Shown piece after piece: positions 2,023 to 29,446 of a DNA stretch of 64,000 bases. The stretch lies in assembly GCF_055900595.2 (NCBI RefSeq), contig NZ_CM148325.1; one strand, given 5' to 3'. Made by a program: the position numbers and the translations under genes. Position 1 is the stretch's first letter, and each line of letters begins with the position of its first letter. The notes under the pieces were generated by a model. The model did not search any database. It saw only the letters and a program-made list of their open reading frames with translations, and had not been told where the DNA came from.

Positions 2023-2107
<85 letters not shown>

Positions 2108-2586: not shown

Positions 2587-2609
2587 AAAAAAACCCCGCC
2601 GAAGCAGGG
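2587..2609 (-). terminator. Intrinsic terminator downstream of narI
   Basis: On the reverse strand: CCCUGC-UUCG-GCGGGG hairpin followed by UUUUUUU, 22 nt after the narI stop. Confidence 0.55.
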
Positions 2610-2630
2610 TCTATGTGAACTAAAATTCGC

Positions 2631-3308: not shown

Positions 3309-4018
3309 TAGTGCTGTCCTCCGGTGGTGATATTCAGATATTGCGGCGCGACGGCACCGGCAAAGCGACGCTGATGAGCAGTGATTGCTGAATCACCGCA
3401 GCCTTTGTCAGCAAAGAATTTAACCTGCTCTTCTTCCCAGACGGCATCCAGCGCCTGTGGCGTATCGTCGCGCGCTTCATCAGCAATTTTTTCCGCCACT
3501 TTGTCGCTGTCGATAGCGGTATTCGCCAGTTTCAGCAGCAGATCAAACAGCACGGCATAACGGCTTTCACGTTGTTGCAGACGCGCGCTCAGCAACGCCA
3601 GGATCGGCGCGATATCTTTCAAACCTTCCACGGCTTCGCTTTGCGGCAGCTGCGCCAGATACTCCAGATACAGCGGCAGATGATCCGGTAATTCACGACT
3701 GTTCAATTGCAAACCGTGCTGCTCATACTGTGCCAACAAGTCAACCATTGCCTGGCCGCGATCGCGGGATTCACCGTGAACATGCTCAAACAGCAGCAAC
3801 GACGTGGCGCGACCACGGTCGAACAGTTCGCTGTACTGGGCCTGAGCATCCAGCGGATCCAGCGCTGTTAAATCGCGCAGGAAAATGCCCAGCGCATGGG
3901 CATCCTCTTTCGACAGATTTTCCGACGCAGCAATCGCCTCAAACATCTCTTGTTGATGCTGCCATAAGGCAGCATCCGGATATTCCAGGAGACGCGATAC
4001 AATCACGAGTTCGATCAT
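3308..4018 (-). CDS. narJ: Nitrate reductase assembly chaperone
   Basis: 236 aa, overlapping narH and narI ends (translational coupling). Confidence 0.95.
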
Positions 4019-5553: not shown

Positions 5554-8500
5554 TTTACGCTCTCCTGTACCTGGTCATTGCCTTCGCCATCTAACCAGTC
5601 AATGTTCTTCATCTTACGCACTACAACAAATTCATCGCGGTTAGAACCTACAGTGCCGTAGTAGTTAAAGCCGTATGCCAGATGGGCATAGCCGCCGATC
5701 ATATGCGTCGGTTTCGGCGTGATACGGGTGACCGAGTTATGAATACCGCCGCGCTGACTGGTGATTTCTGAACCAGGCAGGTTAACGATACGTTCCTGCG
5801 CGTGGTACATCATGGTCATCCCTGCCGGAACACGCTGGCTGACAACCGCACGGGCAGTCAGTGCACCGTTGCTGTTGAAGACTTCAATCCAGTCGTTATC
5901 GGCGATACCCAGCTCTTTGGCATCGGCTTCACTCAACCAGACTACCGGACCACCGCGACCTAAAGTCAGCATCAGCAGGTTGTCGCTATAGGTGGAGTGG
6001 ATACCCCATTTCTGGTGCGGTGTCAGGAAGTTGAGCGCTTTTTCCGGATTACCGTTAGATTTCTGACCCATCACTTCTTTCACCGAACGGGTGTCGATCG
6101 GCGGACGATAAACCAGCAGGCTTTCACCGAAATCACGCATCCACTGATGATCCTGATACAGCTGCTGACGGCCAGAGAGCGTACGCCACGGGATCAGCTC
6201 GTGAACGTTGGTGTAACCGGCGTTGTAAGAAACATGTTCATCTTCAAGGCCAGACCAGGTCGGGCTGGAGATGATTTTGCGCGGCTGCGCCTGAATGTCA
6301 CGAAAGCGGATCTTCTCGTCTTCTTTATTCAGCGCCAGATGCGTATGGTCACGACCGGTAAACTCGCTCAATGCCGCCCAGGCTTTCACGGCCACCTGGC
6401 CGTTGGTTTCTGGTGCCAGCGTCAGGATCATCTCTGCTGCATCAATTGCGGTGTTGAGCATCGGCTGGCCTTTCGCCGGACCTTCCGCTTTGGTGTAGTT
6501 GAGCTTACGCAGCAGATCCATCTCGCTCTGGGTGTTCCAGGCAATCCCTTTACCGCCGTTACCGATTTTCTCCATCAGCGGGCCGATAGAGGTAAAGCGT
6601 TCGTAAGTTGCCGGATAATCGCGCTCTACGACCATAATGTGCGGTGCAGTTTTACCTGGGATCAGGTCGCATTCGCCTTTTTTCCAGTCTTTCACATCCA
6701 GCGGCTGCGCCAGTTCAGCGACAGAGTCGTGCTGGATCGGCAGCGTAACGATGTCGGTTTCTTTGCCCAGATGACCAACGCACACTTCGGAGAATTTCTT
6801 CGCGATGGCTTTGTAGATTTCCCAGTCGCTTTTCGCTTCCCAGGCCGGATCGACCGCAGCAGACAGCGGGTGAATAAACGGATGCATATCCGAAGTATTC
6901 ATGTCGTCTTTTTCGTACCAGGTCGCCGTCGGCAAAATGATGTCGGAATAGAGACAGGTGCTCGACAGACGGAAGTCCAGCGTCACCACCAGATCCAGCT
7001 TGCCTTCCAGACCGTTGTCCTGCCAGTCCACTTCTTCCGGCTTCACGCCGCCCTGCTGACCCAGGTCTTTACCCTGGATACCGTGCTCCGTCCCCAGCAG
7101 GTACTTGAGCATAAACTCATGACCTTTACCGGAAGAACCGAGCAGGTTAGAACGCCAGATGAACAGGTTACGCGGGTGGTTTTTACCGTTTTCTGGTTGT
7201 TCTGCCGCAAAACGGATAGAACCCTCTTTCAGGGATTTCACCGTATAGTCCACCGGATTCATCCCGGCTTTTTCTGCTTCGCGAGCGATAGTCAGCGGGT
7301 TAGTGCCTAACTGCGGCGCAGACGGCAGCCAGCCCATGCGTTCCGCACGGACGTTAAAGTCGATCAGATGTCCGGTATAGCGGGATTTATCCGCCATCGG
7401 CGACAGCAACTCTTCCGCAGTCACGGTTTCATAACGCCACTGGCTGGAGTGGTTATAGAAATAAGAGGTGCTGTTCATGTGACGAGCCGGACGCTGCCAG
7501 TCAAGGGCAAACGCCAGCGGCTGCCAGCCGGTTTGCGGACGCAGTTTTTCCTGACCTACATAGTGCGCCCAGCCACCACCGCTCTGACCGACGCAGCCGC
7601 AGAAAATCAGCATGTTGATCAGACCGCGATAGTTCATATCAAGGTGATACCAGTGGTTCAGACCTGCACCAACGATGATCATTGAACGACCGTGGGTCTT
7701 ATCAGCGTTGTCAGCAAATTCACGGGCAATGCGGATAATCTGGCTGCGAGAAACGCCAGTGATCTGCTCGGCCCATGCAGGGGTGTAGGCTTTCACGTCG
7801 TCATAGCTGGTTGCGCAGTTAACGTCGTTCAGACCACGTTCCAGACCGTAGTTTGCCAACGTCAGATCATAAACGGTCGTCACCAGTGCAGTGCTGCCAT
7901 CAGCCAGTTGCAGGCGTTTCACCGGCAGCTTGTGCAGCAGCACGTTTTCCAGTTCCACTTTGTTGAAGTGTTCCGTGCCGTCGCCACCAAAGTATGGGAA
8001 GCCCACTTCAGCGATCTCATCCTGGCTACCCAGCAGGCTCAGTTGCAGCTCGGTTTCTTCGCCAGTTTTGCCGTCGCGCTGCTCAAGATTCCATTTGCCC
8101 TTCTCGCCCCAGCGGAAGCCAATAGAACCGTTCGGCGCAACCATTTCTCCATTGGTATTAAAGGCGACAGTTTTCCATTCCGGATTGTTTTCCTGGCCCA
8201 GCGCATCAACCAGATCAGCAGCGCGCAGCATACGACCTGCGGCGTAGTAACCGTCGCGTTCTTCCAGCATCACCAGCATCGGCATGTCGGTGTAGCGACG
8301 CACATAGTCGGTGAAATACTGGCTTGGGTTGTCGAGGTGGAATTCACGCAGCATCACGTGGCCCATCGCCAGCGCCATTGCTGCGTCGGTGCCCTGCTTC
8401 GGTGCCAGCCACAGATCGCACAGTTTGGCGATTTCAGCGTAGTCCGGCGTGACGGCAACGGTTTTGGTGCCTTTGTAGCGCACTTCAGTAAAGAAGTGAG

Positions 8501-9293
8501 CATCCGGGGTACGCGTCTGCGGCACGTTTGACCCCCAGGCGATGATGTAGCTGGAGTTGTACCAGTCAGCAGATTCCGGTACGTCAGTTTGCTCGCCCCA
8601 GGTTTGTGGAGACGCAGGAGGCAGATCGCAGTACCAGTCGTAGAAGCTTAAGCAAGTACCGCCAAGCAGCGAGAGATAACGCGCACCCGACGCGTAAGAA
8701 ACCATCGACATTGCCGGAATTGGCGAGAAGCCAGCGACACGGTCCGGGCCGTAGTTTTTGATGGTGTAAACGTTAGATGCGGCGATCAGTTCGTTCACTT
8801 CCTGCCAGGAAGAACGAACAAAACCACCGCGTCCACGCGCCTGCTTAAAGCTTTTCGCTTTATCGGCGTCTTCAATGATAGAAGCCCATGCCTCAACCGG
8901 ATCGCTATGCAGCGCCTTCGCTTCACGCCACATTTTCATCAGGCGTTTGCGCATCATCGGGTATTTCAGACGGTTGGCGCTGTAAAGATACCAGGAGTAG
9001 CTGGCACCGCGCGGGCAGCCGCGAGGTTCATGGTTTGGCAGGTCCGGGCGAGTACGCGGATAGTCAGTCTGCTGGGTTTCCCAGGTGACCAGACCGTTTT
9101 TAACGTAGATTTTCCAGCTGCAGGAGCCGGTGCAGTTTACCCCATGGGTAGAGCGGACGATTTTGTCATGCTGCCAACGCTGGCGATATCCATCCTCCCA
9201 GTCACGGTTGGTATTGAGAAGCTGGCCATGCCCATCGGCAAAGGTTTCGCCCTTCTGTTTGAAGTAGCGAAACCGGTCCAGGAATTTACTCAT
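5550..9293 (-). CDS. narG: Respiratory nitrate reductase alpha subunit (molybdopterin)
   Basis: 1247 aa; N-terminal HGVNCTGSCSWKIY Fe-S motif; molybdopterin oxidoreductase family. Confidence 0.95.
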   Translation of the reverse strand: MSKFLDRFRYFKQKGETFADGHGQLLNTNRDWEDGYRQRWQHDKIVRSTHGVNCTGSCSWKIYVKNGLVTWETQQTDYPRTRPDLPNHEPRGCPRGASYSWYLYSANRLKYPMMRKRLMKMWREAKALHSDPVEAWASIIEDADKAKSFKQARGRGGFVRSSWQEVNELIAASNVYTIKNYGPDRVAGFSPIPAMSMVSYASGARYLSLLGGTCLSFYDWYCDLPPASPQTWGEQTDVPESADWYNSSYIIAWGSNVPQTRTPDAHFFTEVRYKGTKTVAVTPDYAEIAKLCDLWLAPKQGTDAAMALAMGHVMLREFHLDNPSQYFTDYVRRYTDMPMLVMLEERDGYYAAGRMLRAADLVDALGQENNPEWKTVAFNTNGEMVAPNGSIGFRWGEKGKWNLEQRDGKTGEETELQLSLLGSQDEIAEVGFPYFGGDGTEHFNKVELENVLLHKLPVKRLQLADGSTALVTTVYDLTLANYGLERGLNDVNCATSYDDVKAYTPAWAEQITGVSRSQIIRIAREFADNADKTHGRSMIIVGAGLNHWYHLDMNYRGLINMLIFCGCVGQSGGGWAHYVGQEKLRPQTGWQPLAFALDWQRPARHMNSTSYFYNHSSQWRYETVTAEELLSPMADKSRYTGHLIDFNVRAERMGWLPSAPQLGTNPLTIAREAEKAGMNPVDYTVKSLKEGSIRFAAEQPENGKNHPRNLFIWRSNLLGSSGKGHEFMLKYLLGTEHGIQGKDLGQQGGVKPEEVDWQDNGLEGKLDLVVTLDFRLSSTCLYSDIILPTATWYEKDDMNTSDMHPFIHPLSAAVDPAWEAKSDWEIYKAIAKKFSEVCVGHLGKETDIVTLPIQHDSVAELAQPLDVKDWKKGECDLIPGKTAPHIMVVERDYPATYERFTSIGPLMEKIGNGGKGIAWNTQSEMDLLRKLNYTKAEGPAKGQPMLNTAIDAAEMILTLAPETNGQVAVKAWAALSEFTGRDHTHLALNKEDEKIRFRDIQAQPRKIISSPTWSGLEDEHVSYNAGYTNVHELIPWRTLSGRQQLYQDHQWMRDFGESLLVYRPPIDTRSVKEVMGQKSNGNPEKALNFLTPHQKWGIHSTYSDNLLMLTLGRGGPVVWLSEADAKELGIADNDWIEVFNSNGALTARAVVSQRVPAGMTMMYHAQERIVNLPGSEITSQRGGIHNSVTRITPKPTHMIGGYAHLAYGFNYYGTVGSNRDEFVVVRKMKNIDWLDGEGNDQVQESVK

Positions 9294-9384
9294 CGGTTTT
9301 CTCCTGTGGGAGCCTGTCGGCCCTCTGATAAATCGACATTGCTAATGTTTAAGGGCAAGGTAACGCTCTGAAACAGCGTGGGAA

Positions 9385-9398
9385 TTGATAACGATCAA
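9385..9398 (-). promoter_or_regulatory. FNR box in the narG promoter region
   Basis: TTGATAACGATCAA, a perfect TTGAT-N4-ATCAA match about 95 bp upstream of the narG start. Confidence 0.7.
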
Positions 9399-9685
9399 GT
9401 GTGATGGGGATGAAAAATAAAGTAAATTCCTAAGATACCCCTTTAGGATAATTAACAGTTACAGCATAAAAGACTGTAAATTAAGGCATTTTATACCTGT
9501 AGTTATTTAAACTATTAAGAATTTTATGCAGATGGGTATTAAGGAGTATTCCCCATGGGTAACATATTAATGGCTCTTAATGAAATCCGGCGAAATAAGC
9601 CATATAACATTAGTATGTTGTAACTAAATGATGCATAAAAAAAGCGCGACATCATGCCGCGCAAAGGATAATCAAATATTAAGAT

Positions 9686-11077
9686 TTATTTTTTAGAATG
9701 CCGACCATATACCGCCCAGGTAATCACTACGCAGGCGATATAGAAAATCAAAAATACTTTCATTGCGCCGACTGGCGAACCCGTTAATGCCAGCGAGCTA
9801 CCGAACGCTTTCGGGATAAAGAAGCCACCAATCGCGCCAATCGCAGAGATGAAACCCAGCGCAGCCGCCGTGTCGGTTGCCGCTTCACGCATCGCACGTT
9901 CGTCAGAACCCCCTTCTGCTTTCACGCGATCCATTGTCAGTTTACGGAAGATCACGGAAATCATCTGGAAAGTGGAACCACTACCCAGCCCAGCTGTCAG
10001 GAACAGCGCCAGGAAGACTGCGAAGAACGCCATGAAGCTTCCGCCCTGTCCGTCAGTCGGTAAGGTCAGGAACAGCAGGCCGCTGAAAATCGCCATCAGG
10101 ATAAAGTTCACCAGTGTGACACGAGTTCCGCCCAGACGGTCAGATAATGCACCACCTGCAGAACGCGCCAGCGCACCAATAAACGGCCCGAAGAAAGCGT
10201 ATTGCAGAATCTGAACATCCGGGAACTGCGTTTTTGACAGCATCGCAAAGCCCGCGGAGAAGCCGATGAAGGAGCCGAAGGTTGCCAGATACAGCAGGCT
10301 CATAATCCACAGATGACCCCGTTTGAGTACCAGCAACTGCTCCTTGATGGAGGCTTTCGAGGTAGCAAGATCGTTCATGCCAAACCACGCCGCAATGGTG
10401 AAGATGGCAAGGAACGGCACCCATACCCAGGACGCATTCGCCAGATACAGCTCAGTCCCATCCGGCTGTTTGACACCCTGGCTACCAAATACTGCGAAAA
10501 TCGACAGTGATACCACCAGCGGAGCAACCAACTGCATGACGCTGACGCCCATGTTGCCCAGACCACCATTCAGACCCAGCGCGCCACCCTGCTTCTGTTT
10601 CGGAAAGAAGAAGCTGATGTTTGCCATACTGGATGCGAAGTTCGCGCCAGCAAAGCCACACAGCAGAGAGATGATGATGAAGACGCTATAAGGCGTGGAG
10701 GTATCCTGCACGGCAAAACCCAGCCAGACGCAAGGAATAATCAGAATACCGGTGCTGAACGCCGTCCAGCGACGACCACCGAAGATAGGAACCATAAAGG
10801 AGTATGGAACACGTAACAACGCGCCAGAAACCGAAGGCAGCGCCGTCAACATAAATAGCTGATCGGTCGTAAAATTAAAACCGACTTTCGGTAAGTTCAC
10901 CGCAACAGCACTGAATAACATCCATACGCAAAACGCCAGCAGCAGACAGGGAACGGAAATCCACAGGTTGCGGCTGGCAATACGTTGACCGCGTTGTTGC
11001 CAGAACGCAGGATCTTCCGGTCGCCAATCTGTAATGACAGCTCCAGTAGCCCTTTCGGGGGCGGATGAGTGACTCAT
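9686..11077 (-). CDS. narK: Nitrate/nitrite transporter (MFS)
   Basis: ORF 9686..11083; start MSHSSAPERATG at 11077; about 12 TM segments. Confidence 0.9.
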   Translation of the reverse strand: MSHSSAPERATGAVITDWRPEDPAFWQQRGQRIASRNLWISVPCLLLAFCVWMLFSAVAVNLPKVGFNFTTDQLFMLTALPSVSGALLRVPYSFMVPIFGGRRWTAFSTGILIIPCVWLGFAVQDTSTPYSVFIIISLLCGFAGANFASSMANISFFFPKQKQGGALGLNGGLGNMGVSVMQLVAPLVVSLSIFAVFGSQGVKQPDGTELYLANASWVWVPFLAIFTIAAWFGMNDLATSKASIKEQLLVLKRGHLWIMSLLYLATFGSFIGFSAGFAMLSKTQFPDVQILQYAFFGPFIGALARSAGGALSDRLGGTRVTLVNFILMAIFSGLLFLTLPTDGQGGSFMAFFAVFLALFLTAGLGSGSTFQMISVIFRKLTMDRVKAEGGSDERAMREAATDTAAALGFISAIGAIGGFFIPKAFGSSLALTGSPVGAMKVFLIFYIACVVITWAVYGRHSKK

Positions 11078-11136
11078 AGACACCTCTGATACTCGTTTCG
11101 ATGTCTGCCACCTTAGTGTCTGTAGCTAAAGGCAAT

Positions 11137-11150
11137 TTGATGTAAATCAA
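11137..11150 (-). promoter_or_regulatory. FNR box in the narK promoter
   Basis: TTGATGTAAATCAA, perfect consensus about 60 bp upstream of narK; a second, weaker box TTGATATTTATCAT lies at 11175..11188. Confidence 0.7.
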
Positions 11151-11415
11151 ACGATAAGATAACTTTATCTATCATTGATATTTATCATTACCCATAGTGA
11201 GTACAGTGATTTCATAAAAATTATGAGATTTTTCACGGTGCTGTAAAATCCCTACCCTTACCGATGTAAAGCGACTTACCACGCGGCAAATAAGGAGTAA
11301 CTCTTTCCGGGTATGGGTATACTTCAGCCAATAGCCGAGAATACTGCCATTCCAGAATGTATCGTCACATTCATTAAGGTTATTGCTCATTTAAAGCCTG
11401 AAGGAAGAGGTTTGC

Positions 11416-13212
11416 ATGCTTAAACGTTGTCTCTCTCCGCTCACCCTGGTTAATCAGGTTGCGCTTATTGTGTTGCTTTCTACTGCTATTGGACTGGCGG
11501 GGATGGCGGTTTCTGGCTGGCTGGTACAAGGCGTTCAGGGCAGCGCCCATGCGATCAACAAAGCGGGATCGCTGCGCATGCAAAGTTACCGTCTGTTGGC
11601 AGCAGTGCCATTAAGCGAGAAAGACAAGCCCTTAATTAAAGAGATGGAACAAACAGCATTTAGCGCCGAGTTAACCCGAGCAGCAGAACGAGACGGACAA
11701 CTGGCGCAATTACAGGGTTTACAAGATTACTGGCGTAATGAACTGATCCCTGCGCTAATGCGTGCACAAAACCGCGAAACGGTGTCAGCGGATGTCAGCC
11801 AGTTTGTTGCCGGGCTTGATCAACTGGTATCTGGTTTTGACCGCACCACGGAAATGCGCATTGAGACAGTGGTGCTGGTCCATCGGGTAATGGCGGTATT
11901 TATGGCACTTTTACTGGTGTTCACTATTATCTGGTTGCGGGCGCGACTGCTACAACCGTGGCGGCAGTTGTTGGCAATGGCGAGTGCCGTCAGCCATCGC
12001 GATTTTACCCAACGCGCGAACATCAGCGGACGCAACGAAATGGCTATGCTTGGAACTGCGTTGAACAATATGTCTGCAGAACTGGCGGAAAGTTACGCCG
12101 TACTTGAGCAGCGGGTTCAGGAGAAAACCGCCGGGCTGGAACATAAAAATCAGATCCTCTCTTTTTTATGGCAGGCCAACCGCCGTTTGCATTCCCGCGC
12201 CCCGCTGTGTGAACGCCTGTCACCTGTACTCAACGGCTTACAGAATTTAACCCTGCTACGTGATATCGAACTGCGGGTGTATGACACTGATGATGAAGAG
12301 AATCATCAGGAGTTTACCTGCCAGCCAGATATGACCTGCGATGATAAAGGCTGTCAGCTCTGCCCGCGCGGTGTACTCCCCGTTGGCGATCGCGGCACAA
12401 CCCTGAAGTGGCGGCTGGCTGACTCTCATACGCAGTACGGTATTTTGCTGGCAACCCTGCCGCAGGGGCGTCATCTTAGTCATGATCAACAACAACTGGT
12501 GGATACCCTGGTTGAACAACTCACCGCCACGCTTGCGCTGGATCGCCATCAGGAACGTCAGCAACAGTTGATCGTGATGGAAGAGCGTGCCACCATTGCG
12601 CGCGAACTGCATGATTCTATTGCCCAATCTCTCTCTTGCATGAAGATGCAGGTGAGTTGTTTACAGATGCAGGGCGATGCGCTGCCAGAAAGCAGCCGCG
12701 AACTGTTAAGTCAGATCCGTAACGAACTGAATGCATCCTGGGCGCAGTTGCGTGAATTGCTCACCACATTCCGCTTGCAGCTCACCGAGCCTGGATTACG
12801 TCCGGCACTGGAAGCGAGTTGCGAAGAGTACAGCGCCAAATTTGGCTTCCCGGTGAAGCTGGATTATCAATTGCCGCCTCGTCTGGTGCCTTCGCATCAG
12901 GCAATCCATCTGTTGCAAATTGCCCGTGAGGCATTAAGTAACGCCCTCAAACATTCGCAAGCGAGTGAGGTCGTGGTGACAGTGGCGCAAAACGATAATC
13001 AGGTCAAACTGACCGTCCAGGATAACGGCTGCGGCGTGCCTGAAAATGCCATCCGCAGCAATCACTACGGCATGATAATAATGCGCGACCGTGCGCAAAG
13101 TTTACGAGGCGATTGCCGCGTCCGCCGTCGTGAATCAGGTGGCACCGAAGTGGTGGTCACCTTTATTCCCGAAAAAACTTTCACAGACGTCCAAGGAGAT
13201 ACCCATGAGTAA
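11416..13212 (+). CDS. narX: Nitrate/nitrite sensor histidine kinase
   Basis: 598 aa; two N-terminal TM segments, HAMP, and an H-box ([11 protein letters not shown]). Confidence 0.95.
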
Positions 13213-13855
13213 TCAGGAACCGGCTACTATCCTGCTGATCGACGATCACCCGATGCTGCGAACTGGCGTAAAACAGCTTATCAGTATGGCACCAGATATC
13301 ACCGTGGTTGGCGAAGCGAGTAATGGCGAACAGGGTATTGAACTGGCGGAGTCTCTTGATCCCGATTTGATCTTGTTAGATCTCAATATGCCCGGCATGA
13401 ACGGTCTGGAAACGCTGGATAAACTGCGCGAAAAGTCCCTCTCCGGGCGCATTGTGGTATTCAGCGTCTCTAACCATGAAGAAGATGTGGTCACCGCACT
13501 GAAACGCGGCGCGGATGGCTATCTGTTAAAAGATATGGAACCGGAAGATCTGCTGAAAGCATTGCATCAGGCTGCTGCTGGCGAAATGGTATTAAGCGAA
13601 GCATTAACGCCTGTTCTGGCCGCCAGCTTGCGCGCTAACCGTGCCACTACTGAACGCGATGTTAACCAGTTAACCCCACGCGAGCGCGATATTCTCAAGC
13701 TGATTGCCCAGGGTTTGCCGAACAAGATGATTGCCCGCCGCCTGGACATCACCGAAAGCACAGTAAAAGTGCACGTCAAGCACATGCTGAAGAAAATGAA
13801 GCTCAAGTCTCGCGTGGAAGCAGCAGTATGGGTGCATCAGGAGCGCATTTTCTGA
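13205..13855 (+). CDS. narL: Nitrate/nitrite response regulator (LuxR-type HTH)
   Basis: Start [18 protein letters not shown] overlaps the narX end by 8 nt; receiver domain plus C-terminal HTH. Confidence 0.95.
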
Positions 13856-15313
<1,458 letters not shown>

Positions 15314-15314
15314 A

Positions 15315-15402
<88 letters not shown>

Positions 15403-15435
15403 AAGTGTCTAATTCCCTGAATACAGGAGTAAATA

Positions 15436-15789
15436 ATGCAAAAAATCGTGATCGTTGCCAATGGCGCACCTTACGGGAGCGAATCCTTGTTTAACAGCTT
15501 GCGGCTGGCCATTGCGTTACGAGAGCAGGAGAACAATCTGGATCTGCGTCTGTTCCTGATGTCTGATGCGGTCACAGCCGGGTTGCGCGGGCAAAAACCA
15601 GGGGAAGGATACAACATTCAACAAATGCTGGAGATCCTTACCGCTCAGAATGTACTGGTGAAATTGTGCAAAACCTGTACCGACGGGCGCGGGATTAGTA
15701 CACTTCCTCTGATTGATGGGGTGGAAATCGGTACTCTTGTGGAACTGGCGCAATGGACGCTGTCAGCCGATAAAGTGCTCACATTTTAA
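15436..15789 (+). CDS. ychN: DsrE/DsrF-like protein YchN
   Basis: 117 aa ORF (MQKIVIVANGAPYGSES...) with an AGGAG-like RBS upstream. Confidence 0.85.
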   Translation: MQKIVIVANGAPYGSESLFNSLRLAIALREQENNLDLRLFLMSDAVTAGLRGQKPGEGYNIQQMLEILTAQNVLVKLCKTCTDGRGISTLPLIDGVEIGTLVELAQWTLSADKVLTF

Positions 15790-15833
15790 TGTTTGAGGGG
15801 GGCGTCTGACGCCCCACTATGAGGGAAGTTTAC

Positions 15834-16529
15834 TCAGGCGAATCCCGGCCGTAACACACCATCCGGATAATTCTCCGCCAGCAGTTTTTTTACCGATACC
15901 AGCAAATCATTCAGCCCATCGTCCTGCATTCCCAGTTTGATAAGCTCCTGTTCCAGTGAAAACAGGTATTGTGCGTTGGTTCCCAGTGGACCGCTCGCCG
16001 CCGCAATCAACGGCGCGATGACCTGAGCGCGAGTGTCAGATTCATATTCTGGATGTCGCGGGTCCATAATAAACACAATGGCGTTTACTGTGCGTCCATC
16101 ATCAAGATCAAGCTGACACCAGGTTGGCAGATAACAGCCGGTAATCATCTCGCGCTTCCACAACAGGGTTAGTTCCTGCTCCAGCGTCTCTTCTGGCAGT
16201 CGATAGGCGACGCCTGTGGTGCGTCCGCCCTCTTTCAGTGCAAGCATCCGTCCCGGCTGGTGCGCAGTCCCGCGCCCGGCGGTCAGGCGCAGGCAAAACG
16301 CGCGATGCCATCCAACCAGTGTACCAGTGCACGACTCGGTAAACTCCAGTGCCGGATTCCACATCAACGATCCATAACCGAAGATCCACACCGGTCCCTC
16401 ATCAGGTCGACAAGCCAGCGTCGCCGCCAGCTAAGCCGCCCGTTGCTCTGCTGACCATAAGAGTGATTCTTCAATGGCACCAAATGCCGTTTTACAATCG
16501 GCATTCATCAAGAAATCACGCGTTATCAC
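15834..16529 (-). pseudogene. chaC: chaC (gamma-glutamylcyclotransferase family) interrupted by an in-frame amber codon
   Basis: From the GTG at 16529 the reverse strand encodes MITRDFLMNADCKTAFGAIEESLLWSAEQRAA, then TAG (16431..16433), then continues in the same frame as ...LAATLACRPDEGPVWIFGYGSLMWNP... to the stop at 15834. Confidence 0.7.
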
Positions 16530-16685
16530 CTTACACCTCCGCCACTGCATACTTCCCTGCGACAACTTTTTGGTGTCTTCCGGACATTTTACTGCTCATT
16601 TTGAAACCATTAACGGGACAATATGCAATCCACGGACCACTTGCAAGGCAACACCGCACGAATAGCTTTAACTAAGCTACCGGTT

Positions 16686-16916
16686 TTACGATTTTTTATG
16701 CCATTTATCATCATCCCCTTTGGCATATTCATGCTTCACAGCAGCCCAGGCCACTTTATGCGCGGTTTCTTCGCGACTGGCGTCATCACGCCGATCTTCT
16801 TTATCTTTATATTGATCCCATGCGCTGTTGAACGCTTCTTTATAGATATCCTGAGCATGAGACGGTAGCACGTGCTTTACGCTTTCCGGCAGATCGCTTT
16901 TCGTTTTATACGGCAT
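16686..16916 (-). CDS. chaB: Cation transport regulator ChaB
   Basis: 76 aa MPYKTKSDLPESVKH...; ORF 16686..16943 with an internal start. Confidence 0.85.
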   Translation of the reverse strand: MPYKTKSDLPESVKHVLPSHAQDIYKEAFNSAWDQYKDKEDRRDDASREETAHKVAWAAVKHEYAKGDDDKWHKKS

Positions 16917-17184
16917 CGTTGACTCCTTTACAAAGTTGAACATTAAGTGTGGTCAACAATATCCACTCTTGCCAAAACATAAGAATTTTCATGTCAGACT
17001 CTTCTTAAGAAACGCTAAAACAAACATTGTCTAAACGCATTGCTTATTTTTATGGCCCGATGAGTAAAAAATCGACAGTGGGGTAAAAATTCGTAAAATG
17101 TTACCGATATCCAGACACTTTCTGTTATTTTTCCTACCTATTTTTTACATTTTCGATAAATTCATCTGCAAAGGGATAACCATA

Positions 17185-18285
17185 ATGTCAAATGCTCAAG
17201 AGGCGGTAAAAACCCGCCACAAGGAGACTTCGCTTATTTTCCCGGTTCTGGCGCTGGTAGTGCTGTTCCTGTGGGGAAGCAGCCAGACACTACCAGTGGT
17301 CATTGCCATCAATCTTCTTGCTCTTATTGGTATTTTAAGTAGCGCCTTTAGTGTTGTCCGTCATGCGGACGTATTAGCCCATCGCATGGGAGAACCTTAC
17401 GGTTCGCTTATTCTTAGCCTTTCAGTGGTTATTCTTGAAGTCAGTTTGATTTCAGCTTTAATGGCAACCGGCGACGCCGCGCCAACGCTAATGCGTGATA
17501 CGCTCTATTCAATCATTATGATTGTTACCGGTGGGCTGGTTGGCTTTTCATTATTGTTGGGCGGACGCAAGTTTGCCACACAATATATGAATCTGTTTGG
17601 TATCAAGCAGTATTTAATTGCGCTGTTCCCCCTGGCGATAATCGTACTGGTATTTCCAATGGCTCTGCCTGTGGCAAATTTTTCAACCGGTCAGGCGTTA
17701 CTGGTAGCATTAATTTCTGCGGCAATGTATGGCGTATTTTTGCTGATCCAGACCAAAACGCATCAAAGTTTATTTGTTTACGAGCACGAAGATGACAGTG
17801 ATGATGACGACCCGCACCACGGTAAACCGTCTGCCCATAGCAGCCTGTGGCATGCTATCTGGTTGATTGTCCATCTGATTGCCGTTATTGCAGTCACCAA
17901 AATGAACGCCAGCCCGCTGGAGACATTGCTCGACAGCATGAATGCCCCTGTCGCCTTTACTGGCTTCCTGGTGGCTCTGTTGATTCTGTCGCCGGAAGGT
18001 TTAGGTGCGTTAAAAGCAGTGTTGAACAACCAGGTCCAGCGCGCGATGAATCTGTTCTTTGGTTCAGTGTTAGCAACCATTTCGCTTACCGTACCTGTCG
18101 TCACGCTAATTGCCTTTATGACGGGTAACGAATTGCAGTTTGCACTTGGTGCGCCAGAAATGGTGGTGATGGTGGCCTCTTTAGTGCTGTGCCATATCTC
18201 CTTCTCCACCGGACGTACTAACGTGCTCAATGGCGCAGCGCATCTGGCACTGTTTGCCGCCTATTTGATGACGATATTTGCCTGA
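17185..18285 (+). CDS. chaA: Ca2+/H+ (Na+/H+) antiporter
   Basis: 366 aa from MSNAQEAVKTRHK; multi-pass membrane protein with an acidic loop (EHEDDSDDDD). Confidence 0.9.
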   Translation: MSNAQEAVKTRHKETSLIFPVLALVVLFLWGSSQTLPVVIAINLLALIGILSSAFSVVRHADVLAHRMGEPYGSLILSLSVVILEVSLISALMATGDAAPTLMRDTLYSIIMIVTGGLVGFSLLLGGRKFATQYMNLFGIKQYLIALFPLAIIVLVFPMALPVANFSTGQALLVALISAAMYGVFLLIQTKTHQSLFVYEHEDDSDDDDPHHGKPSAHSSLWHAIWLIVHLIAVIAVTKMNASPLETLLDSMNAPVAFTGFLVALLILSPEGLGALKAVLNNQVQRAMNLFFGSVLATISLTVPVVTLIAFMTGNELQFALGAPEMVVMVASLVLCHISFSTGRTNVLNGAAHLALFAAYLMTIFA

Positions 18286-18691
18286 CAGTTATATCTCCTC
18301 CGATGACAGAAATCGGGGGAGATAATATAAATTCCTGCTTATTGTATTTCTTCATACTACCTGAACAGGTCGTTAATCAGAATTGCGAGCCTGTACCACA
18401 ACCTGCACGAAACCACTGCAACAGCTGTTGAAAAGCCGGAATGTACTCTTTATTGCAAACATTTCAGGGATGAAGTGAAGATGAATTGAGACGTAATATC
18501 CACACCAAGCCGGCGTTATCCGGTGAGGCGCAATGTTGCGGGGGCTTTATCCCTGGTGGCATTGGTTGCTGGAAAGAGAAAACCCCCCGCACGTTGAGAG
18601 GTAAAACCTGACAACAGAACGGGGGCTAATCTTGAACCATCAACAATTCAAGAATAGCTGCAAAATGTTGTCATTACAACAAGGCGGCTAT

Positions 18692-18799
18692 ATGACGCTC
18701 GCGCAGTTTGCCATGATTTTCTGGCACGACCTGGCGGCACCGATCCTGGCGGGGATTATTACCGCAGTGATTGTCAGCTGGTGGCGTAACCGGAAGTAA
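18692..18799 (+). CDS. ldr: Ldr-family small toxic membrane peptide (type I toxin), copy 1
   Basis: 35 aa MTLAQFAMIFWHDLAAPILAGIITAVIVSWWRNRK; single hydrophobic helix with a basic C-terminus. Confidence 0.85.
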   Translation: MTLAQFAMIFWHDLAAPILAGIITAVIVSWWRNRK

Positions 18800-18849
18800 G
18801 GTGAAAACGGGCGTCAGGCTGCCGTGATGGCAATATGCGCCCGAAACCA

Positions 18850-18880
18850 GCCGCAGGGGTAACAGCCTGCGGCCTTTTTT
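18850..18880 (+). terminator. Intrinsic terminator after ldr copy 1
   Basis: GCCGCAGG-GGTAACA-CCTGCGGC hairpin followed by TTTTTT. Confidence 0.7.
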
Positions 18881-19226
18881 GTCTTTATCTCTTCTGCAAG
18901 TAAATATTGGCAACCCGAGCTGGAAGCATCATCCAGAGCACTCATGAAACGACTGTAACAACTGTTGAAAAACCGGAATGCACTCTTCATTGCAAACATT
19001 TCAGGGATGAAGTGAAGATGAATTGAGACGTAGTATCCACACCAAGCCGGAGTTATCCGGTGAGGCGCAATGTTGCGGGGGCTCTATCCCTGGTGGCATT
19101 GGTTGCTGGAAAGAGAAAACCCCCGCACGTTGAGAGGTACAACCTGACAACAGAACGGGGGCTAATCTTGAAACCAGACACTTCAAGAATAGCCGCAAAA
19201 TGTTGTCATTACAACAAGGCGGCTAT

Positions 19227-19334
19227 ATGACGCTCGCGCAGTTTGCCATGACTTTCTGGCACGACCTGGCAGCACCGATCCTGGCGGGAATTATTACCGC
19301 AGCGATTGTCAGCTGGTGGCGTAACCGGAAGTAA
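19227..19334 (+). CDS. ldr: Ldr-family small toxic membrane peptide (type I toxin), copy 2
   Basis: 35 aa MTLAQFAMTFWHDLAAPILAGIITAAIVSWWRNRK; two substitutions (I9T, V26A) relative to copy 1. Confidence 0.85.
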   Translation: MTLAQFAMTFWHDLAAPILAGIITAAIVSWWRNRK

Positions 19335-19384
19335 GGTGAAAACGGGCGTCAGGCTGCCGTGATGGCAATATGCGCCCGAAACCG

Positions 19385-19415
19385 GCCGCAGGGGTAACAG
19401 CCTGCGGCCTTTTTT
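19385..19415 (+). terminator. Intrinsic terminator after ldr copy 2
   Basis: Same GCCGCAGG...CCTGCGGC hairpin plus T-run as after copy 1. Confidence 0.7.
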
Positions 19416-19497
19416 GTATCCGGCCCCATGAAAAAAGCCTTAACGCAGAATGGACTGACCCATAACGCTAAGGCTTTTGTTTTCAAACAAAAAAAGA

Positions 19498-20361
<864 letters not shown>

Positions 20362-20387
20362 TTAATCTTGAGTAAAATGTCGATTAA

Positions 20388-21197
20388 TTAATGCAGCACA
20401 ATATGTTTATGCGCGATGTTATTTATTTGCGCACGGATCATTTCGCTGATCGGGTCTTCCGGACACTGTTCAACGAAATAACTTAAATCGTTCAACGCAA
20501 CGTGTTCGCAATCCAGTTGCGCATAAATCAACCCGCGATCGCGAATTTCATAGGGATCTTCCGGGTTAAATTGTAATAAAGCTTCGCTGGTGCGTAATGC
20601 CAGCTCCATCTGATTTTCTTCCATCAACGAGGCTTTGAGTGTGTCCAGCAATTTGCGGATTACCTCAATGTTATCAGCTTCATCAAGATCTTCATAAAAC
20701 AGTTCCGCTGACGGGCTGATATTTCCCTTTAACCAAACGTCCAGCATATGTTCGCTTAACGATTCACCGTTAAAAGGATTAATCAGCCAAATTTCGCCAT
20801 CCGGACATTCAATGCGCAATATCAGCTGCGTCGGGAAAATCACCGGCAGCAGCGGCAAATCAAGACGATTAGCGACCCACAATAAAACGGCGCCTAATGA
20901 TACCGCACTGCCCTGCCGATTCTTTAACACCTGGTCCAGCCATAATGCATCGGAAAGACGATAAACGCCGCGTGAGGCTTTAAATCCCCAGTCGCCGTAA
21001 AACAGCGCGATCAGTTTTTCCAGCTGCTCTTCTAAAGGCAGAAGCTGGCTGATTTCTTCCTTCGCCAGAGTAACGAGACGCTCCAGTTCGTCGTAAACAT
21101 CTTGCGAGGGAAAATCGCGGCGGATTGCTTCGCAAGCCAAGATCATGCCTTCGCACAATGGCGCTTTATTAAATTCGAAATCAGCTAACGATCTCAT
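20388..21197 (-). CDS. sirB1: SirB1/YchA family protein (transglutaminase-like/TPR)
   Basis: 269 aa ORF in the conserved position between kdsA and sirB2. Confidence 0.85.
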   Translation of the reverse strand: MRSLADFEFNKAPLCEGMILACEAIRRDFPSQDVYDELERLVTLAKEEISQLLPLEEQLEKLIALFYGDWGFKASRGVYRLSDALWLDQVLKNRQGSAVSLGAVLLWVANRLDLPLLPVIFPTQLILRIECPDGEIWLINPFNGESLSEHMLDVWLKGNISPSAELFYEDLDEADNIEVIRKLLDTLKASLMEENQMELALRTSEALLQFNPEDPYEIRDRGLIYAQLDCEHVALNDLSYFVEQCPEDPISEMIRAQINNIAHKHIVLH

Positions 21198-21200
21198 GAC

Positions 21201-21593
21201 TTACCCCAGTAACGGTACTTTTGTGGTGGCGAGTTTAATGATGATGTACAGCACCACCAACGCCAGCGGGAAGGCAATAATGCGCGCCTGCTGACTGTGC
21301 ATACGACGATAATCGAGTGCAATAAAACCCAAAACGATATAAATGATAACTCCAAACAGCTTTTCAGTCAGCCACTGTGCCTGCCCGGAAAATGGCAGGA
21401 TGTGCGCTTTAGCCATCAACGCAATGCCGCTTAACAATAACACCGTATCGACAACCGGCGGCACAATGCGCGTCCAACGAGCAAATGCCTGTGGATGCTT
21501 CTGATAACGTAGCCAGAAACGTAAGGTTAATAGCCCTACAGAAAGCGCAATGCTAATGAGATGAACGCTAAGCAGTGTAGAAAAACTTGTCAT
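21201..21593 (-). CDS. sirB2: SirB2/YchQ inner-membrane protein
   Basis: 130 aa with four predicted TM helices. Confidence 0.85.
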   Translation of the reverse strand: MTSFSTLLSVHLISIALSVGLLTLRFWLRYQKHPQAFARWTRIVPPVVDTVLLLSGIALMAKAHILPFSGQAQWLTEKLFGVIIYIVLGFIALDYRRMHSQQARIIAFPLALVVLYIIIKLATTKVPLLG

Positions 21594-22423
21594 TGATAAT
21601 AGCGGCCGAGCGTTACGCGCTCGTTATCACCATAGTCCCGACAGGTTTCGACGTCATGATATCCCGCGTGGATAAATGCCTGTCGCACCGCTTCGCCCTG
21701 CTGCCAGCCATGTTCCAGAAGCAGAAAGCCGCCGGATACCAGCGCGTTACGCGACTGTTCGATGATATGCACGATGTCTGCCATTCCACTGTCTGCCGCA
21801 ACCAGCGCAGTGAGCGGCTCAAAGCGGACATCGCCTTGTTGAAGATGTGGATCCTGCTCGTCAATATACGGCGGATTGCTGACAATCATCGCAAACTGCT
21901 GCCCGGCTAGCGCGCTAAACCAGTCGCTTTGCAGAATATGGATATTTTTGATCGCCAGATGCTGGGCATTACGTTGTGCCAGAGAGACAGCATCTGGCAT
22001 ACGATCTACAGCGGTAATTTCACAGTCCGGGCGCTCGCTAGCCAGCGCCAGCGCAATCGCCCCGGTACCCGTCCCGAGATCGAGAATACGGCAAGGCTGT
22101 TCAGGCAACCGCGCCAGTGCCTGCTCCACCAGACACTCCGTATCCGGGCGCGGAATTAAGGTCGCTGGCGAAACAAATAACGGCAGCGACCAGAATTCTC
22201 GCACCCCGGTTAAATGAGCAATAGGTTCACCATCGCGACGACGCGTCAGTAGCGCATCAAGTTGCTGACATTGTTCGTCAGTCAGCTGCGTTTCACCAAA
22301 GGCGAGAATAAAAGTACGCCCTTTGCCGGTAACATGCTCCAGCAGGATTTCAGCATCACGCCGCGGGCTTTCGCTCGCCTGAAGTTGGCTTATTGCTTCA
22401 CGTAACCAGTGTTGATATTCCAT
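21590..22423 (-). CDS. prmC: Release-factor glutamine N5-methyltransferase (HemK)
   Basis: 277 aa with an AdoMet motif (ILDLGTGTGAIA) and the NPPY catalytic motif; overlaps the prfA stop. Confidence 0.9.
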   Translation of the reverse strand: MEYQHWLREAISQLQASESPRRDAEILLEHVTGKGRTFILAFGETQLTDEQCQQLDALLTRRRDGEPIAHLTGVREFWSLPLFVSPATLIPRPDTECLVEQALARLPEQPCRILDLGTGTGAIALALASERPDCEITAVDRMPDAVSLAQRNAQHLAIKNIHILQSDWFSALAGQQFAMIVSNPPYIDEQDPHLQQGDVRFEPLTALVAADSGMADIVHIIEQSRNALVSGGFLLLEHGWQQGEAVRQAFIHAGYHDVETCRDYGDNERVTLGRYYQ

Positions 22424-23505
22424 TATTCCTGCTCGGACAACGCCGCCAGTTGATCGGCCTGATGTTCCTGGATAATCGGTTCAATCAGCATATCCAGCTT
22501 ACCTTCCATCACTTCATCCAGACGGTAGAGCGTCAGGTTGATGCGGTGATCGGTAACGCGCCCCTGCGGGAAATTGTAAGTACGGTTACGGTCGCTGCGA
22601 TCGCCACTCCCCAGCAGGTTACGACGGGTAGACGCTTCGGCCTGTTGCCGTTTTGCCATTTCTGCAGCGTGGATGCGAGCACCAAGTACAGAAAGTGCTT
22701 TAGCTTTGTTTTTATGTTGTGAACGTTCGTCCTGACATTCAACAACAATCCCGGTCGGCAAGTGGGTAATACGGATTGCCGAATCGGTGGTGTTAACGTG
22801 CTGACCACCAGCTCCTGAAGAGCGGAAAGTATCAATGCGCAAATCTGCTGGGTTGATGTCCGGCAGTTCTGCGTCAGGCAGTTCTGGCATTACCGCAACG
22901 GTACAAGCAGAAGTATGAATTCGACCCTGCGATTCCGTAGCAGGCACACGCTGCACGCGATGACCGCCAGATTCGAATTTCAAACGACCATATACACCAT
23001 CACCGCTAATTTTGGCGATGATCTCTTTATAGCCACCATGTTCACCCTCGCTGGCGCTCATGATTTCTACACGCCAGCGGCGGGCTTCGGCGTAACGGCT
23101 GTACATACGGAACAGATCGCCAGCGAAGAGCGCCGCTTCGTCGCCGCCGGTTCCGGCACGGACTTCGAGGAAGGCGTTACGTTCGTCATCAGGATCTTTT
23201 GGTAGTAACAGAACCTGTAATTGCTGTTCCAGTTGCTCGCTTTTTTCTTTAGCTTCGCGCAGTTCATCCTGCGCCATCTCACGCATTTCAGGATCGTCGA
23301 GCATCATCTGTGCGGTTTCGATATCTTCCTGAACCTGTTGCCAGTCGGTAAAACAGCGCGAAACATCACTTAACTGCGCATATTCGCGTGATAATGCGCG
23401 AAAACGTTCCTGGTCGGCGATAGTTTGCGCGTCACCTAGCAACGCCTGAACTTCTTCATGGCGTTCATGCAGGGCTTCCAGTTTGGCAACGATAGAAGGC
23501 TTCAT
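22423..23505 (-). CDS. prfA: Peptide chain release factor 1
   Basis: 360 aa containing the GGQ motif ([11 protein letters not shown]) and a PxT-type recognition region. Confidence 0.95.
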
Positions 23506-23545
23506 AGGCGTAAATGCACCCTGTAAAAAAGAAAATGATGTACTG

Positions 23546-24802
23546 CTACTCCAGCCCGAGGCTGTCGCGCAGAATATTCAGGCGTTCGTTATCCCCGTCA
23601 CGGGCGGCCTGTTGAAGTGATTTCGTTGGCGCATGGATCAAGCGGTTAGTCAGTTTCCATGCCAGATCCTGCATAATGGCTTGCGCGTCGCCGCCCTGCT
23701 CAAGGGCCGCTAACGCTTTGGCGGTTAACTCATCGCGAACTTGCTCTGCCTGGCTGCGATACTCGCGAATGGTTTCGCTGGCGCTTTGTGCACGCAGCCA
23801 CGCCATAAATTCGCTGGTTTCCTGGGCGACAATAGTTTCCGCCTCAACTGCTGCGGCTTTACGCTGCGCCAGGTTGTGCGAAATAATGCTTTGTAGATCG
23901 TCAACACTATAAAGGTAAGCATTCGCCAGTTTGCCAACTTCCGGCTCAACATCGCGCGGAACGGCAATATCTACCAACAGCATCGGTTGGTTGCGACGGC
24001 TTTTTAATGCGCGCTCCACCATGCCTTTACCGATAATCGGCAACGGACTGGCGGTAGAACTAATAATGATATCGGCTTCGCGCAGACGTTCGTCAATATC
24101 GCTCAAGGCAATCACTTCTGCGCCGACTTCATCTGCCAGAATTTGGGCGCGTTCGCGAGTACGGTTGGCGATAATCATCTTCTGTACTTTGTGTTCACGT
24201 AGATGACGCGCCACCAGCTCGATAGTCTCACCCGCGCCAACTAGCAGTACCGTCACCGTAGAGAGCGATTCAAAGATCTGACGCGCCAGCGTACAAGCCG
24301 CAAAAGCGACAGACACAGCGCTGGCACCGATATCGGTTTCAGTACGAACGCGTTTTGCGACAGAGAAAGATTTCTGGAACATGCGCTCCAGTTCGCTGGC
24401 CTTCATATGGCCTTTTTGCGAATCGGCAAACGCCTTTTTAACCTGACCGAGGATCTGCGGTTCCCCCAGAACCAGTGAATCCAGGCCGCTGGCAACACGC
24501 ATTAAATGGCTAACTGCATCGTTATCCTGATGCCAGTAGAGGCTTTTACGCAGATCGTCTTCATTGAGATTATGGTAATCGCAAAGCCAGCGGATTAACG
24601 CCTCTTGCAGGTTATCCTGCTCTTCAACGCTAAGATAAAGTTCTGTGCGGTTACACGTCGACAGTACCACGCCGCCCTGCACCATCGGCTGCGCAAGCAG
24701 GCTGTCAAGCGCCTGATCGAGCTTATCCGGCGAAAACGATACACGTTCTCGCAGCGATACAGGAGCCGTTTTATGGTTGATACCGAGTGCTAAAAGGGTC
24801 AT
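23546..24802 (-). CDS. hemA: Glutamyl-tRNA reductase
   Basis: 418 aa from [21 protein letters not shown]; the tracked ORF is extended 66 codons upstream of the likely start. Confidence 0.9.
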
Positions 24803-24946
24803 GTCTGCGGGAAATAATACCAACGTTGATAGGGTTAGTCTGCTCGCATCATACAGGATGCGCGAGATCAATAAAAGAGAGTGCCCCCTTTTGGAGTAAT
24901 TGCCGAAAGCCGTTAGATTCTGGCAATTAAGACAACTTGAACATAG

Positions 24947-25638
<692 letters not shown>

Positions 25639-25639
<1 letters not shown>

Positions 25640-26490
25640 TGCGGACACAGTGGCCCTCTCCGGCAAAACTTAATCTGTTTTTATACATTACCGGTCAGCG
25701 TTCGGACGGTTACCACACGCTGCAAACGCTGTTTCAGTTCCTGGATTACGGCGACACCATCAGCATTGAGCTTCGTGACGATGGGGATATTCGTCTGTTA
25801 ACCCCCGTTGAAGGCGTGGAACATGAAGATAACCTGATCGTTCGCGCAGCACGGTTGCTGATGAAAACAGCAGCCGCCAGCGGGCGTCTTCCTACGGGAA
25901 GCGGTGCAGAAATCAGTATTGACAAGCGTTTGCCGATGGGCGGCGGTCTGGGTGGTGGTTCATCCAATGCCGCGACGGTGCTGGTGGCATTAAACCATCT
26001 CTGGCAATGCGGGCTAAGCATTGATGAACTGGCGGAAATGGGGCTGACGCTGGGCGCAGATGTTCCTGTCTTTGTTCGGGGGCATGCCGCGTTTGCCGAA
26101 GGCGTTGGTGAAATACTAACGCCGGTGGATCCGCCAGAGAAGTGGTACTTGGTGGCGCACCCTGGTGTAAGTATTCCGACACCGGTGATTTTTAAAGATC
26201 CTGAACTCCCGCGCAATACGCCAAAAAGGTCAATAGAAACGTTGCTAAAATGTGAATTCAGCAATGATTGCGAGGTTATCGCAAGAAAACGTTTTCGCGA
26301 GGTTGATGCGGTGCTTTCCTGGCTGTTAGAATACGCCCCGTCGCGCCTGACTGGGACAGGGGCCTGTGTCTTTGCTGAATTTGATACAGAGTCTGAAGCC
26401 CGCCAGGTGCTAGAGCAAGCCCCGGAATGGCTCAATGGCTTTGTGGCGAAAGGCGTTAATCTTTCCCCATTGCACAGAGCCATGCTTTAA
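25639..26490 (+). CDS. ispE: 4-diphosphocytidyl-2-C-methyl-D-erythritol kinase
   Basis: 283 aa GHMP kinase motif ([14 protein letters not shown]); start overlaps the lolB stop. Confidence 0.9.
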
Positions 26491-26514
26491 GCCGGGCAAG
26501 CTGAGTTTCGGTGA

Positions 26515-27588
<1,074 letters not shown>

Positions 27589-27606
27589 TCGAACCCGGCT
27601 CAAAGA

Positions 27607-27627
27607 CCCGCTGCGGCGGGTTTTTTT
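27607..27627 (+). terminator. Intrinsic terminator after prs
   Basis: CCCGC-TGCG-GCGGG hairpin followed by TTTTTTT. Confidence 0.7.
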
Positions 27628-27712
27628 GTCTGTAATATCCATTTGTATGACCTATGCCTCCTTCACCTGCCATTTAGTTGACAGATGATGCGCTCACGGA
27701 TGAAACATTATT

Positions 27713-29392: not shown

Positions 29393-29446
29393 GTACGAAA
29401 TTGACCAGTCAGCGCAAACTGACTGGTCAGCAAACTGCATTATTTG

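Follow-up and report, generated by a model that had tools for sequence, protein, structure and literature searches.

An amber codon at Ser33 of chaC, inherited in a sub-lineage of Escherichia and probably tolerated

Among the closest described relatives of the gene studied here is human ChaC2, an active 184-residue enzyme with a Tyr6-Gly7-Ser8 motif and a conserved catalytic glutamate, Glu83 (PMC7022552; PDB 6K95, 6KY0 and 6KY1). Human ChaC2 evolved without an N-terminal extension, whereas the enterobacterial enzyme carries a conserved one of 46 residues. Deletion of chaC leaves salt tolerance, sodium content and glutathione (GSH) level unchanged, overexpression of chaC lowers GSH, and chaB and chaC are at least partly co-transcribed (bioRxiv 10.64898/2026.05.15.725350). 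A nonsense allele of the gene is on record for E. coli 2012C-4221 (NZ_CP027437.1, C6W65_RS04525), where a C-to-A change has converted a TCG serine codon to TAG and PGAP annotates a pseudogene with an 'internal stop'.

The locus described here lies in a 64,000-nucleotide stretch of DNA, referred to as the window, and can be set against both E. coli genes. It shares locus, synteny, GTG start and stop with ChaC of E. coli K-12 (b1218, NP_415736.2), and differs from that protein and from WP_001295621.1 in that codon 33 is TAG rather than TCG, which leaves no full-length enzyme by normal decoding. It shares with the 2012C-4221 allele the same type of base change in the same type of codon. The stop of 2012C-4221, however, replaces Ser54 within the YGSL motif and leaves only ATG56 beyond it as a start codon, which rules out any active restart product there, and it arose as an independent event in another lineage. 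We conclude, with a probability of roughly 0.8, that the window carries a genuine, vertically inherited chaC nonsense allele that amounts to a tolerated loss of function or a strong hypomorph.

The chaC reading frame and its amber codon

Coordinates of the chaC frame and of the other features discussed below are collected in Table 1. On the minus strand the frame translates as VITRDFLMNADCKTAFGAIEESLLWSAEQRAA, a stop, and then LAATLACRPDEGPVWIFGYGSL...RPGFA with the terminal stop; codon 33 is the sole internal stop. The first-pass annotation had placed a chaC N-terminus on the reverse strand from the GTG at 16529, had read codon 33 as TAG with the frame open from there to the normal stop, and had expected TCG or a similar sense codon in close relatives. 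Translation, the list of open reading frames and the RefSeq orthologues agree with it on every one of these points. Codon 33 is TCG in 042, N3, R32_14_1F, EC42405, 2013C-4282 and K-12.

Table 1. Positions of the features discussed in the text, numbered along the window
Feature	Position	Strand	Remarks
chaC, full ancestral frame, 231 codons plus stop	15834..16529	-	Gapless 1-696 alignment to annotated chaC of E. coli 042, N3 and R32_14_1F
Native Shine-Dalgarno sequence of chaC, GGAGGTG	16534..16540	-	Duplex with 16S 3' end; 4 nt to GTG
Native GTG start of chaC	16527..16529	-	Same start in RefSeq CDS of 042, N3, K-12 and EC42405
32-codon N-terminal remnant, released at TAG	16434..16529	-	Inferred product
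Premature amber codon TAG, codon 33	16431..16433	-	Ancestral TCG (Ser); C-to-A transversion on the coding strand at 16432
SD-like GAGG before GTG47	16397..16400	-	Duplex with 16S 3' end; 4-5 nt to GTG
Internal in-frame GTG, codon 47, candidate reinitiation codon	16389..16391	-	First ATG, GTG or TTG past the stop
185-residue ORF with complete ChaC/GGCT catalytic domain, potential truncated product	15834..16391	-	List of open reading frames
YGSL substrate-binding motif (GGCT fold), codons 52-55	16365..16376	-	Invariant in 18 genera; aligns with Tyr6-Gly7-Ser8 of human ChaC2
Glu codon 127	16149..16151	-	Invariant in 18 genera; aligns with catalytic Glu83 of human ChaC2 (by alignment only)
Normal TGA stop of chaC	15834..15836	-	Translation; end matches annotated orthologues
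chaB, upstream of chaC, intact	16686..16916	-	100% identical to the R32_14_1F gene
tyrT and tyrV (classical supF amber-suppressor locus)	1904..2107	+	ARAGORN; wild type, anticodon GTA; base-for-base as in K-12
prfA (release factor 1, reads UAG), intact	22423..23505	-	No amino-acid difference from WP_000804726.1 of R32_14_1F and EC42405

Apart from this codon the gene is ordinary. It differs from chaC of E. coli 042 at two bases, nt 98 (TAG for TCG in codon 33) and nt 204 (ACT for ACC, synonymous), and from K-12 at 11 nucleotides, of which only those giving the stop at Ser33 and F221Y alter the protein. Leaving the stop aside, the encoded protein is identical to WP_001295621.1, the 231-residue RefSeq orthologue, which is annotated with the same GTG start under the name chaC, glutathione-specific gamma-glutamylcyclotransferase. 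The chaC stretch of the window aligns end to end with the 696-nt chaC CDS in 5,414 of the 5,426 RefSeq complete E. coli genomes, with a best identity among these genomes of 99.7%. When the stop is repaired, the protein scores 193.5 bits against Pfam PF04752 (cut-off 21), with residues 47-215 covering profile positions 1-175 of 176. At the sequence level the gene thus has the features of the ChaC family, except that the TAG at codon 33 interrupts the frame for the full enzyme.

The surroundings of chaC are undisturbed. The gene order of chaA, chaB-chaC and the convergent ychN is the same in 042, K-12, EC42405 and R32_14_1F. All 36 comparable neighbouring genes are free of internal stops and 35 of them align without gaps; the remaining gene, treA, has four gap positions in its alignment and an intact translation. 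Polarity on a downstream gene does not arise, since the chaB-chaC unit ends with chaC and ychN runs towards it.

Inheritance of the allele within a sub-lineage

A chaC gene with the TAG, 100% identical to that of the window, is present in seven other assemblies: GCA_030295215.1 (Escherichia sp. KS167_9B), GCA_044688905.1, GCA_027278625.1, GCA_958310195.1, GCA_974490495.1, GCA_965255895.1 and GCA_965264245.1. These carriers were found by exact-protein look-ups only, KS167_9B with the 185-residue ORF, which is annotated there as BDI50646.1 (AP025754.1), and the other six with ChaA of the window and the 176-residue product that starts at ATG56. The look-up with the 176-residue product also returned one contig in which the 5' end of chaC is out of register. 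On the plus strand, position 16432 is T in all eight carriers, window included, and G in the outgroups 042, R32_14_1F, EC42405 and K-12.

The eight carriers differ from one another around the gene, with seven variable flanking sites and six haplotypes in 2.9 kb around chaC. The haplotype of the window equals none of the other seven, and it therefore counts as an eighth independent sequence. The flanking SNPs are nested: the window shares an A at 15609 with two carriers, and those two carriers have a G at 16920. This nesting indicates that the amber mutation is older than the diversification of the sub-lineage. The first-pass annotation had offered a recent nonsense mutation, and hence a pseudogene, as one of its readings. 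The nonsense mutation itself stands, given the TCG of the orthologues and the pseudogene call that PGAP makes for the analogous allele of 2012C-4221; the word 'recent' has to be qualified, as the allele predates the diversification of its carriers.

The same data dispose of an error in assembly and of the suggestion, also made there, that a true TCG was misread in sequencing. A one-base difference from all close complete genomes is what such an error would look like, but the same base occurs in seven assemblies from different submitters, which are set apart by SNPs nearby. The change is moreover a substitution that lies outside homopolymers and outside Dam (GATC) and Dcm (CCWGG) sites, and the 36 genes compared in the surrounding 45 kb show neither frameshift nor stop. 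The identical allele in seven independent assemblies means that the stop is real, and we give an error practically no chance.

Searches in other collections returned no further carrier. Among the approximately 5,400 RefSeq complete E. coli genomes, none matches a 71-mer centred on the TAG perfectly over its whole length, and a 23-mer across the TAG has no match in GTDB species representatives or in JGI metagenomes. The closest carrier is missing from the E. coli collection because it was deposited as 'Escherichia sp.'. Two kinds of apparent match were set aside. Matches to the 32-residue N-terminal peptide come from genes cut by a contig end, at ...GCGGCT or ...GCGGCTTC; they are wild type where readable and are not evidence of an amber codon. 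Four short ENA metagenome contigs encode exactly the 185-residue product and have no TAG; their upstream sequence is unrelated or shifted, and they are most likely chimeric or carry an indel. A literature search on AP025754, GCA_030295215 and KS167_9B found nothing relevant.

Across about 45-48 kb, identity of the window is 96.7% with K-12 and 98.5% with EC42405. EC42405 and 2013C-4282 are among its best matches, and both are completely sequenced strains of Escherichia cryptic clade I (PMC10100065; this clade I paper makes no mention of chaC or pseudogenes). Judged by this similarity, the window probably comes from cryptic clade I, and the amber mutation probably arose within that clade, in the ancestor of a sub-lineage. 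ChaC is intact in EC42405 and 2013C-4282 (WP_001295621.1), and the allele therefore marks a sub-lineage and not clade I as a whole. Downstream of the TAG, the eight carriers show no further change in chaC. Only about two changes are expected there by our estimate from the diversity of the flanks (Poisson P of about 0.1), so the count of zero has no power for or against continued constraint.

Translation start, termination and possible restart at codon 47

We compared ChaC homologues from 18 genera of Enterobacterales, from Citrobacter, Salmonella and Klebsiella to Erwinia, Pantoea and their relatives. These proteins are 219-249 residues long, mostly 225-232. In the 18-genus alignment residues 1-46 are strongly conserved, with 21 invariant positions that include Ser33. 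The upstream GTG is established as the native start by the conservation of these residues across Enterobacterales. The first-pass annotation had named, as an outcome that would overturn it, orthologues showing that ChaC in this lineage normally starts at the downstream GTG; the upstream part would then be an untranslated leader and the TAG irrelevant. Such a start would fit the Pfam domain, which begins at V47, and the eukaryotic homologues, which have no extension. The orthologues point the other way. Residues 1-46 are conserved as protein from Escherichia to Erwinia and Pantoea, the annotated lengths are 225-232 residues, the native site has a strong GGAGGTG Shine-Dalgarno (SD) sequence, and the clade I relatives have an intact 231-residue ORF. 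Initiation at the downstream GTG as the normal state of the gene is accordingly about as improbable as a sequencing error. AlphaFold2 predicts a helix over residues 27-39, with a mean pLDDT of 72 for residues 21-30, 90 for residues 31-40 and 77 for the whole model. A helix predicted with moderate-to-high confidence over residues 21-40 suggests that the extension is probably structural in the enterobacterial subfamily.

The termination machinery of the window is of the common type. Altered termination was considered as an explanation and rejected, as the RF1 protein is the common allele. The genes prfA and prmC lie 6 kb from chaC, and PrmC differs at four residues from one reference strain. No suppressor tRNA is found among the two tRNA genes of the window, tyrT and tyrV, both of which are wild-type tRNA-Tyr genes. 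With RF1 normal and tyrT and tyrV wild type, translation from the native start should stop after 32 residues. There is no sign of programmed recoding of the UAG, of the pyrrolysine type or as conserved readthrough: the UAG occurs in one sub-lineage only, and other Escherichia and the 18 genera encode serine at this position.

The UAG could still be decoded by a suppressor tRNA encoded elsewhere or by unusually high readthrough, in which case full-length ChaC would be made; the first-pass annotation had remarked on this for an amber-suppressor background. The base that follows the stop is C, and TAG C reportedly terminates rather weakly in E. coli. Beyond the stop the ORF has stayed undamaged in every carrier, and most tRNA genes lie outside the window. 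Against this, the only tRNAs of the window capable of suppression are identical to the K-12 wild type, RF1 is intact and of common sequence, and basal readthrough in E. coli as a rule stays far under a few percent. Natural isolates seldom carry suppressor alleles, and the whole sub-lineage would need to have one fixed. We consider decoding of the UAG very improbable.

The course of events that we favour begins with one C-to-A transversion that turned the invariant Ser33 codon TCG into TAG in the ancestor of an Escherichia sub-lineage. Ribosomes would begin at the strong native GTG/GGAGGTG site and RF1 would release the chain after 32 residues. Full-length 231-residue ChaC would then be absent, save for trace near-cognate readthrough, and any residual activity would need reinitiation at GTG47.

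The first-pass annotation had raised such a restart, and the sequence makes a truncated, possibly active product plausible. GTG47 is the earliest in-frame start codon past the TAG, with 39 nt between the two (the GTG begins 40 nt past the last base of the TAG). The SD-like GAGG before it is of moderate strength. The 185-residue product scores 194.7 bits against Pfam ChaC, with its residues 1-169 covering profile positions 1-175 of 176, and it thus spans the whole PF04752 domain. In the alignment with human ChaC2 (PDB 6K95), V47, position 1 of that domain, falls opposite Met1. With V47 at the domain start and both YGSL and E127, the glutamate aligned with Glu83, retained, the truncated product would hold the complete catalytic domain and would begin at the equivalent of the first residue of an active human enzyme. 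E. coli offers classical examples of reinitiation just past a nonsense codon, among them the lacI restarts. As in the lacI amber and ochre restarts, a nonsense codon lies early in chaC and an in-frame GTG with an SD-like element comes only a few dozen nucleotides later; unlike those restarts, reinitiation in chaC is read from the sequence.

We nevertheless regard it as unlikely that restart or internal initiation at GTG47 supplies the carriers with a 185-residue, ChaC2-like enzyme that still degrades glutathione. Such a product would lack 46 residues that rank with the best conserved of the enterobacterial protein, 21 of them invariant in 18 genera, and that include the predicted helix of an extension that is probably structural. 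The duplex with the 16S 3' end is far weaker for the GAGG before GTG47 than for the native site (-6.1 against -10.8 kcal/mol; -3.1 kcal/mol for ATG56), and the GAGG sits in a predicted local stem. A promoter/terminator scan found no promoter-like site on the minus strand inside chaC that could serve the 185-residue ORF, overall counts being not above those in shuffled sequences, and a search of Rfam found no RNA family overlapping chaC. The S54amber lineage, with its stop within YGSL, also speaks against a need for restart. That allele is beyond rescue by any restart, from which it follows that complete loss of ChaC is tolerated in nature.

Tolerance of chaC loss and its meaning

Our preferred reading, a tolerated nonsense allele, agrees with what is known of the gene in the laboratory. 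The mutation would be tolerated because it causes no polarity and because no effect of a chaC deletion on growth, sodium or glutathione has been reported from laboratory work. We infer from this that the allele entails loss of function, is close to neutral in its effect and would be carried along passively. At least four other independent nonsense alleles are present within the first 54 codons of chaC in other lineages of E. coli, namely S22ochre, W25opal, R41opal and S54amber. With hundreds of thousands of genomes sampled, sporadic losses of a dispensable gene such as chaC are to be expected. Intact chaC is the rule, as judged from the blocks of the collection, of which 459 index the truncated call and 11,672 the intact protein, about 25 times more.

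An adaptive explanation has also to be weighed, in which loss or shortening of ChaC is advantageous and chaC is a recurrent target for the tuning of glutathione turnover in natural Escherichia. It would draw on two lines: a minimal enzyme of the ChaC2 type that the S33amber sub-lineage may retain by restart at GTG47, and the other early nonsense alleles listed above. The adaptive explanation is weakened by the roughly 25-fold excess of the intact protein in the blocks and by the fact that independent nonsense alleles are expected in any case. We hold it to be quite unlikely.

The carriers most likely have an ordinary nonsense pseudogene, or hypomorph, specific to their lineage, in a gene that is dispensable; events of this kind are well known, and this one adds a further case. 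Its significance beyond correct annotation is little. The appropriate annotation of chaC in the sub-lineage is pseudogene with an internal stop; a candidate enzyme truncated at the N-terminus is the most that could be claimed. The coding-strand A at 16432, T on the plus strand, is a clean single-base marker of the sub-lineage, which is probably part of Escherichia cryptic clade I. Should the 185-residue restart product be made and prove active, it would provide a test of the role of the conserved 46-residue extension. Natural chaC knock-out lineages could serve the study of ChaC physiology in E. coli.

Genes that bear on the reading of UAG

Only 6 kb separate the amber codon of chaC from the genes for release factor 1, the factor that recognizes UAG, and for its methyltransferase PrmC. 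The release factor protein is the common allele and shows no difference, and PrmC differs from that of the comparison strain R32_14_1F at four residues (G49D, I146V, A147S and Q148L). The tyrT-tyrV pair, which is the supF locus, is identical in sequence to the K-12 wild type. Two RtT repeat units come after the pair, at 2154..2285 and 2332..2462, as against four annotated in the cryptic clade I strain EC42405. Coordinates of these and the other features are collected in the table.

Features of the window and equivalent loci in other assemblies
Feature	Location	Strand	Remark
tyrT-tyrV and RtT repeats	1904..2462	+	supF locus
ychO	13856..15286	-	inverse autotransporter invasin
chaC nonsense or out-of-register loci (L022, L026, L030, L028, L025, L024)	equivalent to 16362..16529		L025 is NZ_CP027437.1 856905..857600
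chaA-chaB-chaC 5' end contigs (L009-L017)	equivalent to 16432..16434		contigs stop at chaC codon 32/33
two rdl antitoxin RNAs	18577..19179		between chaA and kdsA
prfA and prmC	21590..23505	-	release factor 1 and its methyltransferase
treA-ymgE intergenic segment	42915..44053		variable spot of the chromosome

Other chaC alleles and contig ends

Early nonsense alleles of chaC have also arisen independently in other E. coli lineages, at S22 (TAA), W25 (TGA), R41 (TGA) and S54 (TAG). A look-up with the 176-aa product showed that these lineages have the C-terminal 176 residues of ChaC in common. The S54 allele is labeled a pseudogene with an 'internal stop' by PGAP. On one further contig, L024, the first ~18 chaC codons are out of register, probably because of an indel. 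Intact ChaC is indexed in 11,672 collection blocks and the truncated 176-aa call in 459.

Separately, many independent Logan/ENA contigs carrying the 5' end of chaC stop at codon 32/33, with an exact terminus after ...GCGGCT or ...GCGGCTTC. Most are ~2.0-2.1 kb in length. These ends look as if the assembly graph breaks where mixed E. coli populations have a common polymorphism in the third base of codon 33.

Variable sites and lineage of the window

The ychO frame reaches an upstream ATG and encodes 476 aa, the length also called by DFAST and Prodigal in carrier genomes, whereas the RefSeq annotation of relatives gives 464 aa (1395 nt). This is a discrepancy in the annotated start codon only.

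The two rdl RNAs imply two ldr/rdl type I toxin-antitoxin repeats, compared with three in K-12. Copy number and spacing vary among the relatives that carry the TAG allele: one of them (L020) has a single copy, and an indel relative to KS167_9B lies near 18588. Neither K-12 nor R32_14_1F, both of which have ycgY at the site, aligns with the treA-ymgE segment, and EC42405 does so in part only, to about 43381. An iron ABC-transporter/modD island occupies the site in EC42405 and is absent from the window.

Over 1..49000, identity of the window is 98.5% to EC42405, which is documented as a cryptic clade I strain, and 96.7% to K-12. For any large segment, no complete E. coli genome in RefSeq exceeds about 99.2% identity. 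Identity to the best complete genome ranges by gene from 95.0% (kdsA) to 100% (chaB, sirB2 and ychH), a mosaic pattern that is suggestive of recombination.
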